Shown here piece after piece: positions 54,043 through 54,278 of a stretch of DNA of 64,000 nt. This DNA comes from an uncultured Alphaproteobacteria bacterium (GTDB lineage: Bacteria; Pseudomonadota; Alphaproteobacteria; RF32; CAG-239). The notes beneath the pieces are model-generated. The model ran no database searches and was not told where the DNA came from. It saw only the letters and a list, made by a program, of their open reading frames with translations. The stretch spans positions 2,733-66,732 of the forward strand of contig CALXZH010000010.1 of assembly GCA_944393175.1 (NCBI GenBank), written 5' to 3'. Both the position numbers and the translations under genes were made by a program. Every line of letters starts with the position of its first letter. The first letter of the stretch is position 1.

Positions 54043-54071
54043 TTGCAAATTTTTTTATCTCAATTTATGAT
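54043..54071 (+). promoter_or_regulatory. Strong sigma70-type promoter TTGCAA-N17-TATGAT.
   Basis: Near-consensus hexamers at 54043-54048 and 54066-54071 with 17-bp spacing. Predicted TSS near 54078. Confidence 0.5.
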
Positions 54072-54078
54072 GTTTTTT

Positions 54079-54278
54079 GCAAACGGGGTGGTAACCGTTT
54101 GTGGAGACTCAAAACTCCGTGAACTACCTATAGCCTCCTTCGGGGAGGAATACCACACTCTCTTTTGAGGGGTGGATGTAATAAGCTTTCTCTTCGGAGG
54201 AGGTCGAATAAGTCCGACCATGTTGTTCACGATTGGTTTTGAGCCCCTCACCTTTAATTTTTAGAGGTGATTTTTTTT
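54079..54278 (+). ncRNA. Candidate ~200-nt structured small RNA of unknown identity (independent promoter and intrinsic terminator).
   Basis: No ORF. A long closing helix pairs 5' ggagactcaaaactccgtgaac with 3' gttcacgattggttttgagcccctc and encloses several hairpins, among them CCUCC-UUCG-GGGAGG, CUC-UUCG-GAG and GGUCG-aauaagu-CGACC. Terminator tcacct...aggtga plus T8 at 54246-54278. Confidence 0.4.

Follow-up and report, generated by a model that had tools for sequence, protein, structure and literature searches.

The 64,000-nucleotide stretch of an uncultured alphaproteobacterial genome analyzed here (the window) carries, at 54043-54278 on its plus strand, a transcription unit of about 200 nucleotides (nt) beside a gene for an XRE-family regulator, and this unit is the subject of the present report. 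The initial annotation placed it in a divergent intergenic region upstream of that gene, and this is what is found: the upstream neighbor (53559-53981), a membrane-protein open reading frame (ORF) of 140 amino acids with no Pfam or NCBIfam match, is read from the minus strand, and the helix-turn-helix (HTH_3) regulator of the XRE family (54388-54834, plus strand) starts 110 nt after the terminator end. Further out, gyrB lies upstream and polA downstream. The unit opens with a sigma70-type promoter at 54043-54071 (TTGCAA as the -35 element, a 17-nt spacer and TATGAT as the -10 element) and closes with a strong intrinsic terminator at 54248-54278, detected by scanning and found at the same place in all relatives, in which a 10-bp stem (54248-54270) with a 3-nt loop is followed by eight U residues. 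Nine of the 12 hexamer positions of the promoter agree with the consensus; with nine promoter-like sites in 2.5 kb as against 6.0 +/- 2.4 in shuffled sequence, the match alone is not above chance, and the promoter call draws its support instead from the -35 block GGTTGCAA and the -10 region, which are invariant or conserved across all relatives. A coding function was considered and rejected, since the sole plus-strand ORF (54043-54168, 41 amino acids, TTG start) begins within the -35 hexamer and thus upstream of the likely transcription start.

The plus-strand RNA (54078-54280) is highly structured, with a minimum free energy (MFE) of -83.5 kcal/mol and a z-score of -6.47; none of 200 shuffled sequences folded as well. 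An RNA from the minus strand was rejected because of its weaker fold (-68.6 kcal/mol), the orientation of promoter and terminator, and the conserved G-U pairs (located in H3, hairpin B and stem B, described below) that would become C-A mismatches. The predicted fold is dominated by a long helix, which had been recognized initially with strands at 54098-54119 and 54231-54257; the helix itself stands, but its strands are better placed at 54103-54127 and 54222-54250. Two UUCG loops, likewise pointed out before, are indeed present in the window (in the region of 54139-54143 and at 54193-54196) but are not kept in other lineages. Given its size of about 200 nt, its strong promoter and its core-gene neighbors (gyrB and polA), the unit could be thought to encode a diverged housekeeping RNA, be it 6S RNA, a piece of transfer-messenger RNA (tmRNA), signal recognition particle (SRP) RNA or RNase P RNA. 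We consider this very improbable: none of these four, 6S RNA (RF00013) included, gave a score at E <= 10, ARAGORN finds no tmRNA here and one relative (L068) has its tmRNA gene elsewhere, the structure is a multi-branch junction and not a 6S rod with a central bubble, and the distribution is limited to a narrow clade. The earlier reading by eye that the RNA is not tmRNA, SRP RNA or RNase P RNA is thus upheld, while the idea of a 6S-like RNA has to be given up. Across Rfam as a whole, no family reached its gathering score in this region and none fell below E 0.05.

Homologues were gathered through orthologues of the XRE gene and one DNA-pattern scan; the metagenome pattern scan gave a single true homologue (L058) among six hits. 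The RNA-bearing loci comprise L001 and L060-L067, which form the window's species-level clade, together with L002, the pair L045 and L046, the pair L047 and L068, and L058, and represent about six independent lineages of uncultured Alphaproteobacteria. L001 belongs to the metagenome-assembled genome (MAG) 'uncultured Alphaproteobacteria bacterium BRZ_RR__bin74', whose locus is 93-95% identical to the window, and L002 to a mouse-gut MAG. In every lineage the RNA lies immediately upstream of the XRE gene and on the same strand, and this is the only gene that always adjoins it; the outer neighbors vary, being gyrB and polA in the window clade and hslO-recX elsewhere. The RNA is confined to XRE orthologues of at least 55% identity, and no such RNA was seen upstream of the examined XRE homologues of 46-53% identity. 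With its own promoter and terminator, its conservation, compensatory changes in its helices among the relatives, and no curated Rfam family to which it belongs, the flagged unit is a genuine conserved non-coding RNA gene of about 200 nt, and the initial proposal of a stand-alone, lineage-restricted small RNA (sRNA) gene holds.

The long helix is composed of two pairs of complementary elements, for which we use the names of the corresponding P1 elements discussed below. An a1-like site, CUCAAAAC (54108-54115), is complementary to the recognition element a', GUUUUGAG (54236-54243), which reaches from the 3' strand of hairpin B through the junction to the base that opens the 3' strand of stem B. 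After 3 nt follows a hypervariable b1-like site, GUGAACUAC (54119-54127), complementary to the recognition element b', GUUGUUCAC (54222-54230), in the hairpin-B loop; between b1 and the module to which a' and b' belong lie 39 nt with the spacer hairpins. The a1:a' pairing covaries at its first pair (C-G versus U-A in L002 and L058) and at its last (C-G versus G-C in L047). For b1:b', the six lineages show six different perfect helices of 7-9 bp, b1 reading GUGAACUAC in the window, CAGAUAGUA in a second allele of the window clade, AAAUGCA in L045, AGCAUACA in L047, AAACACG in L058 and CCUAAGA in L002. Cognate b1:b' duplexes have energies of -4.6 to -10.6 kcal/mol, as compared with +1.6 to -3.0 kcal/mol for non-cognate combinations. 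Within the window clade two alleles are found: allele A in the window, L060, L065 and L066, and allele B in L001, L061-64 and L067, where b' is UACUAUCUG and is matched by b1 CAGAUAGUA. The remaining RNA is almost identical between the two alleles, and the flanks are 93-97% identical.

One copy departs from this pattern: that of L046 (2002-2158) lacks about 55 nt, comprising the 5' hairpin, a1 and b1, and bears extra substitutions. The XRE protein of L046 is identical to that of L045, and its b' is closer to the b' of L047 than to that of L045. Judged from the sequence, this copy could be either a decaying allele or an assembly artefact.

MAFFT alignments of the whole RNA lost register where the sequence is variable, and we therefore relied on a hand-segmented alignment, verified against the sequences, and on a model-based alignment. 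From the inferred transcription start onward the RNA forms a 5' hairpin (54079-54102; GCAAACGG / CCGUUUGU, loop GGUGGUAA) with compensatory changes from A-U to U-A in L058 and from G-C to A-U in L047, and with a conserved loop core, GGUAR. In the spacer, the comparative alignment gives hairpin H1 (54134-54148, CCUCC / GGAGG), for which L045 has CUUCC/GGAAG and which L002 lacks, followed by the sequence CUCUC (54158-54162), which can pair with GAGGG of the 5' strand of stem B as an alternative hairpin H2 of the closed fold; this sequence is invariant, which puts the pairing beyond the reach of covariation. Taken in isolation, the 3' part of the RNA (54166-54253) folds as a module with a three-way junction, as predicted in five of the six lineages. 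The module consists of stem B, 8 bp in length (UGAGGGGU / GCCCCUCA, 54166-54173 with 54243-54250); hairpin A, with its base GGAU/GUCC (54174-54177 with 54212-54215), A/U-rich internal loops and the helix H3 (54186-54203); hairpin B, GACCA[13-nt loop]UGGUU (stem 54216-54220 with 54234-54238, loop 54221-54233); and a 4-nt junction (54239-54242), after which comes the tail CC(U). The 5' side of the terminator shares 2-3 nt with the 3' strand of stem B.

Compensatory changes are seen in stem B (U-A versus G-C, and G-C versus A-U), in the base of hairpin A (G-C versus A-U) and in the stem of hairpin B (C-G, A-U or U-A at one pair, A-U or C-G at another). In the model-based alignment of eight distinct sequences 98.2% of cells were paired and five pairs had changed on both sides, counts that come from an alignment fitted to the model; none of 500 shuffles matched them, and slid controls contained no compensatory pair. 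In the full-length RNA, the MFE structure is the closed fold, in which a1 and b1 are paired with a' and b' in a helix of 17-20 bp. Hairpin B and part of stem B are incompatible with this helix, and compensatory changes occur in both states. A further pairing, a pseudoknot between GGUGG of the 5' hairpin loop and CCACC of the terminator, was considered and rejected, as the loop variants GGCGG (L061), GUUGG (L047) and GAUGG (L066) are uncompensated.

The layout recalls that of the annotated immI region of phage P1, where the promoter P1c4 is followed by a 5' hairpin, a1 (UUGACAG), 7 nt, b1 (GUUAGUGC), 66 nt, the c4 RNA (77 nt), the sites a2 and b2, and the genes icd and ant. The c4 RNA itself has b' as the loop of its second hairpin and a' as its 3' junction, and it finishes in CCACC. 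The window RNA keeps this order of promoter, 5' hairpin, a1, spacer, b1, spacer hairpin(s) and a module of about 80-90 nt, and its recognition elements, 7-9 nt each, are likewise complementary to b1 and a1 upstream in the same transcript, the second hairpin carrying b' in its loop and the 3' junction containing a'. The topology is also of the C4 type: two neighboring hairpins are enclosed by an outer stem, the 3' junction is single-stranded, and the tail has the form CC(N)CC. P1 and P7 c4 differ by 4 nt, and the variable loops set target specificity (PMC5320573); alleles A and B here resemble this situation in that specificity differs among close relatives. RNase P cuts the c4 RNA at the outer-stem base, where a GGW motif lies (PMC5320573). 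The first bases of stem B are GGA in five lineages and (U)GAG in the window clade, with a U/A-rich stretch ahead, which is at most suggestive with regard to this GGW rule.

There are also clear differences from P1 c4, to which neither the sequence nor the model similarity is significant. The outer stem is about 17 bp there and 8 bp in the window RNA, hairpin A of the latter has large A/U-rich internal loops, and its fold is dominated by the near-continuous a1b1:a'b' helix. No a2/b2 sites or icd/ant-type genes lie downstream in the window, and the setting is chromosomal, beside an XRE regulator in an alphaproteobacterium.

By score, the closest family is sRNA-Xcc1 (RF02221). The 3' halves of relatives score 23.5, 28.3, 27.6 and 27.7 bits against this model, and a second module at the L068 locus, to which we return below, scores 34.4 bits (E 0.007); the gathering score of 53 bits is reached neither by the relatives nor by the window copy, which gives no match. 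A covariance model (R1) built from five relatives only recovers the window module at 43.9 bits (E ~1e-8) as a single copy in the 64-kb window. R1 also matches L072:1503-1580 at 22.1 bits (E 0.0052 in 142 kb, a rough value given the short calibration), and this element, on the plasmid pSTJ2 of Sulfuricystis multivorans, is a genuine sRNA-Xcc1 with 73.9 bits to RF02221. The likeness extends to the topology, the AAUAnAAG / GAAUAA internal loops of hairpin A, a junction of the UUUGAG type and the CCNCC tail; the combination of a hairpin A with an A/U-rich asymmetric internal loop, a hairpin B and a junction of about 6 nt is found here as well. The L072 locus (1395-1584) moreover has a perfect upstream a1 (GCTCGTAA, at 1395) followed after 5 nt by b1 (CTGCAAG, at 1408). 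These complements indicate that the c4-a1b1 design extends to sRNA-Xcc1 loci, even though Rfam keeps the family outside clan CL00128, in which it joins C4 (RF01695) and c4-a1b1 (RF03163). H3 is longer in the window family than in sRNA-Xcc1, and its setting is the core genome upstream of an XRE gene, whereas sRNA-Xcc1 RNAs are, according to the literature, usually carried by plasmids, prophages and integron cassettes, where they precede symE or ORF6N genes. They have been described in tandem with both C4 and IsrK, and it is typical of the family that modules stand in tandem ahead of a small gene for a regulator or a toxin.

Chromosomal or prophage derivatives of the c4 system have precedents in IsrK and in the 'Group 1' C4-like sRNAs of Acinetobacter baumannii. 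IsrK (RF01394) aligns to the P1 a1b1 leader; the IsrK model itself gave no match in our searches. Those of Acinetobacter are made as longer transcripts, in which a 5' extension precedes a C4-like 3' part; they show apparent processing at a GGW motif and vary mainly in the recognition loop (PMC5320573). They are multi-copy and recognized by the C4 model, unlike the window RNA, which is single-copy in the 64 kb.

Two matches of the model searches were set aside. A weak R1 match on the minus strand of L047 (857-934, 21.4 bits) is antisense to the 5' half of the RNA itself and probably just mirrors the a1b1/a'b' complementarity. A match to RT-4 (RF03025) at L045:2158-2274 (25.8 bits, with a threshold of 73.5) was dropped, as it did not recur in other relatives.

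Membership of the window RNA in the Rfam families C4 and sRNA-Xcc1 fails on score, so the link to c4 rests on architecture and that to sRNA-Xcc1 on sub-threshold scores, and what we claim is an RNA of the same kind on a divergent branch. Specifically, we suggest, with a probability of roughly 0.5, that the unit encodes a chromosomal, divergent antisense RNA of the c4/sRNA-Xcc1 type, which masks itself through a1b1 and whose specificity loop varies between strains. The promoter at 54043-54071 would give rise to a primary RNA of about 200 nt, whose 3' half (54166-54253) can adopt a tRNA-like three-way junction, built from two hairpins and an outer stem that carries a CC tail; the loop of hairpin B would display b', and the 3' junction a'. 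In the primary transcript a1 and b1 would mask both by pairing with them in the closed fold. Since this fold is the more stable one in the full-length RNA, the open fold would require processing; a cut on the 5' side at the base of stem B, which in P1 is made by RNase P, may release the c4-like module, which could then base-pair with a two-part target, with specificity set by the b' element that is swapped wholesale between strains. We propose a masked precursor and a processed module because the two exclusive folds both carry compensatory changes. The gene, its conservation, the two folds, and the complementarity and covariation of a1b1 with a'b' are directly supported, while processing, antisense action and any immunity-like role are what we infer from them.

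Several observations weigh against this proposal and should be kept in mind. The window RNA matched no Rfam family even at E <= 10; the C4 model (gathering score 45), to which P1 c4 itself scores 68.8 bits, gave no match in the window at E <= 10 or in the relatives at E <= 5; and R1 scores only 5.6 bits on P1 c4, though at the correct coordinates. The comparison has only about six independent lineages behind it, and the pair counts are subject to the caveat given above. A terminator directly follows the window module, whereas c4 lies within an operon. The closed fold lies 15-20 kcal/mol below the constrained c4-like fold (the gap is 4.5 in L045). Target searches were likewise negative: no locus contains a second perfect complement of b', a bipartite a-b scan of the 64-kb window returned only noise besides the a1b1 site, no a2/b2 target was found downstream over the ribosome-binding site of the next gene, and the module loops showed no consistent complementarity to the XRE ribosome-binding region when compared with shuffled controls. 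The XRE leader is, in addition, the same in both b' alleles, and the ribosome-binding region of the neighboring XRE gene seems no convincing target.

Some of the same observations would be expected of a stand-alone structured sRNA that acts in its closed fold, as a five-way junction closed by 54103-54127 / 54222-54250, and that might bind a protein or serve as a sponge through its GGAGG/CCUCC-rich hairpins. The resemblance to c4 and sRNA-Xcc1 would then be convergent or vestigial, and the variable helix a structural spacer whose sequence is free. The energy advantage of the closed fold, the fact that the long helix has the strongest covariation, the negative antisense target searches and the bounding of a complete 200-nt unit by promoter and terminator all speak for such an RNA. 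It leaves unexplained, however, the compensatory changes seen in two helices that the closed fold excludes (stem B and the hairpin-B stem), the reciprocal model matches with sRNA-Xcc1, the identical a1-b1 / b'-a' layout in P1 and at the sRNA-Xcc1 locus, and the wholesale exchange of a helix between strains that are 93-97% identical, and we regard it as unlikely, while granting it real weight.

The constant association with the XRE gene invites a different interpretation, namely that the RNA is a cis-acting leader or attenuator in which a conditional terminator, in competition with stem B or with a GUGGAG:CUCCAC pairing, sets XRE expression by read-through. RNA and regulator gene are adjacent and on the same strand in every lineage despite differing flanking genes, the 110-nt spacer of the window contains no convincing XRE promoter, the 3' strand of stem B overlaps the 5' strand of the terminator, and the spacer downstream of the terminator contains a further hairpin. 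This last element (54337-54365, GGCGGUG ... CACUGCC) has counterparts with different stem sequences in L002, L045, L047, L058 and L068, and from this comparison, made by eye, is taken to be a conserved, covarying structure at the RNA level. However, the overlap with the terminator amounts to 2-3 nt only, and the predicted fold accommodates the closed helix and the terminator together; the candidate anti-terminator pairing GUGGAG/CUCCAC has imperfections in the window clade and, as it does not vary, offers no covariation by which to judge it; and most relatives have about 300 nt between terminator and XRE gene, with a separate extended -10 promoter-like element and a second module. XRE regulators, moreover, are not known as typical riboswitch-controlled genes. 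A role as XRE leader thus seems distinctly doubtful.

The second module just mentioned resembles sRNA-Xcc1 and lies between the terminator and the XRE gene in the majority of relatives, among them sister strains of the window (L060:1041-1126, L066, L067, L068:289-380, L045:~2370-2450, L047 and L002). It is absent from the spacer of the window itself (54279-54387), and the sister strains vary in having it. It has its own promoter-like element and its own upstream b1-like sequence, CCACAAGG, complementary to its hairpin-B loop, CCUUGUGG; the loop includes the anti-Shine-Dalgarno sequence CCUU, and on this basis the second module might regulate XRE translation.

Since the RNA class is, according to the literature, typical of prophages, plasmids and integron cassettes, the locus could also be a decaying remnant of a mobile-element immunity region that is still transcribed and has no function for the host. 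It lies at an indel hot spot, the L046 copy is 5'-deleted and mutated, and the second module comes and goes among sister strains, as might be expected of a relic. On the other side, the RNA outside b1 and b' is better conserved than its flanks, compensatory changes have kept all its helices paired in lineages that share only 55-60% identity in their XRE proteins, and promoter and terminator are intact everywhere. Searches for a phage or plasmid origin gave no support either: blastn against phages returned nothing, two pattern scans of IMG/VR returned chance coding matches or nothing and no true match, and the neighbors are gyrB, polA, recX and hslO instead of the antirepressor-type genes of a phage or plasmid immunity region. 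We therefore consider a functionless remnant quite improbable.

Going beyond the proposal of a self-masked antisense RNA, the locus could represent a domesticated, RNA-only 'immunity' or self-recognition system: a pro-sRNA whose recognition elements stay masked until processing, whose b' loop and matching b1 are under diversifying selection or allelic exchange among co-existing strains of gut Alphaproteobacteria, and whose targets would be strain-specific mobile elements or phages and not the neighboring gene. We offer this as a speculative extension that is, on balance, unlikely. Were it true, it would provide the first covariation-based evidence for intramolecular masking by the long-unexplained a1/b1 sites of c4-type systems, which are annotated merely as 'putative' targets in P1. 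Apart from this extension, a long, perfectly kept and lineage-specific helix is comparative evidence for self-masking as a selected feature, and the two b' alleles in near-identical strains resemble the P1/P7 heteroimmunity switch and may serve as a natural experiment in the evolution of RNA specificity. If the self-masked antisense RNA is correctly recognized, uncultured Alphaproteobacteria add to the c4/sRNA-Xcc1 class a divergent chromosomal branch that is missed by current Rfam models; its practical importance is modest, given the narrow clade and the negative target searches.

Some minor observations concern the surroundings of the RNA gene and the rest of the window. The indel hot spot extends over 53141-54020, between gyrB and the RNA promoter: L001 lacks 53249-54020, and L060-L065 lack 53141-53558. 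Apart from the membrane protein described above, this region encodes a Cys-rich protein of 132 amino acids (53135-53533, minus strand), also with no Pfam or NCBIfam match. Downstream of the XRE gene in L068, an element on the minus strand (1300-1456) is, by its match to RF00023 (E 5.5e-7), the 3'-terminal part of a tmRNA gene and also matches weakly the model of permuted tmRNA. Elsewhere in the window, Rfam identifies an rpsB sRNA/leader (RF01815) at 7472-7569 on the plus strand, with 48 bits against a gathering score of 40, and tRNA genes are present at 990-1065 (plus), 2000-2076 (minus) and 3566-3641 (plus).

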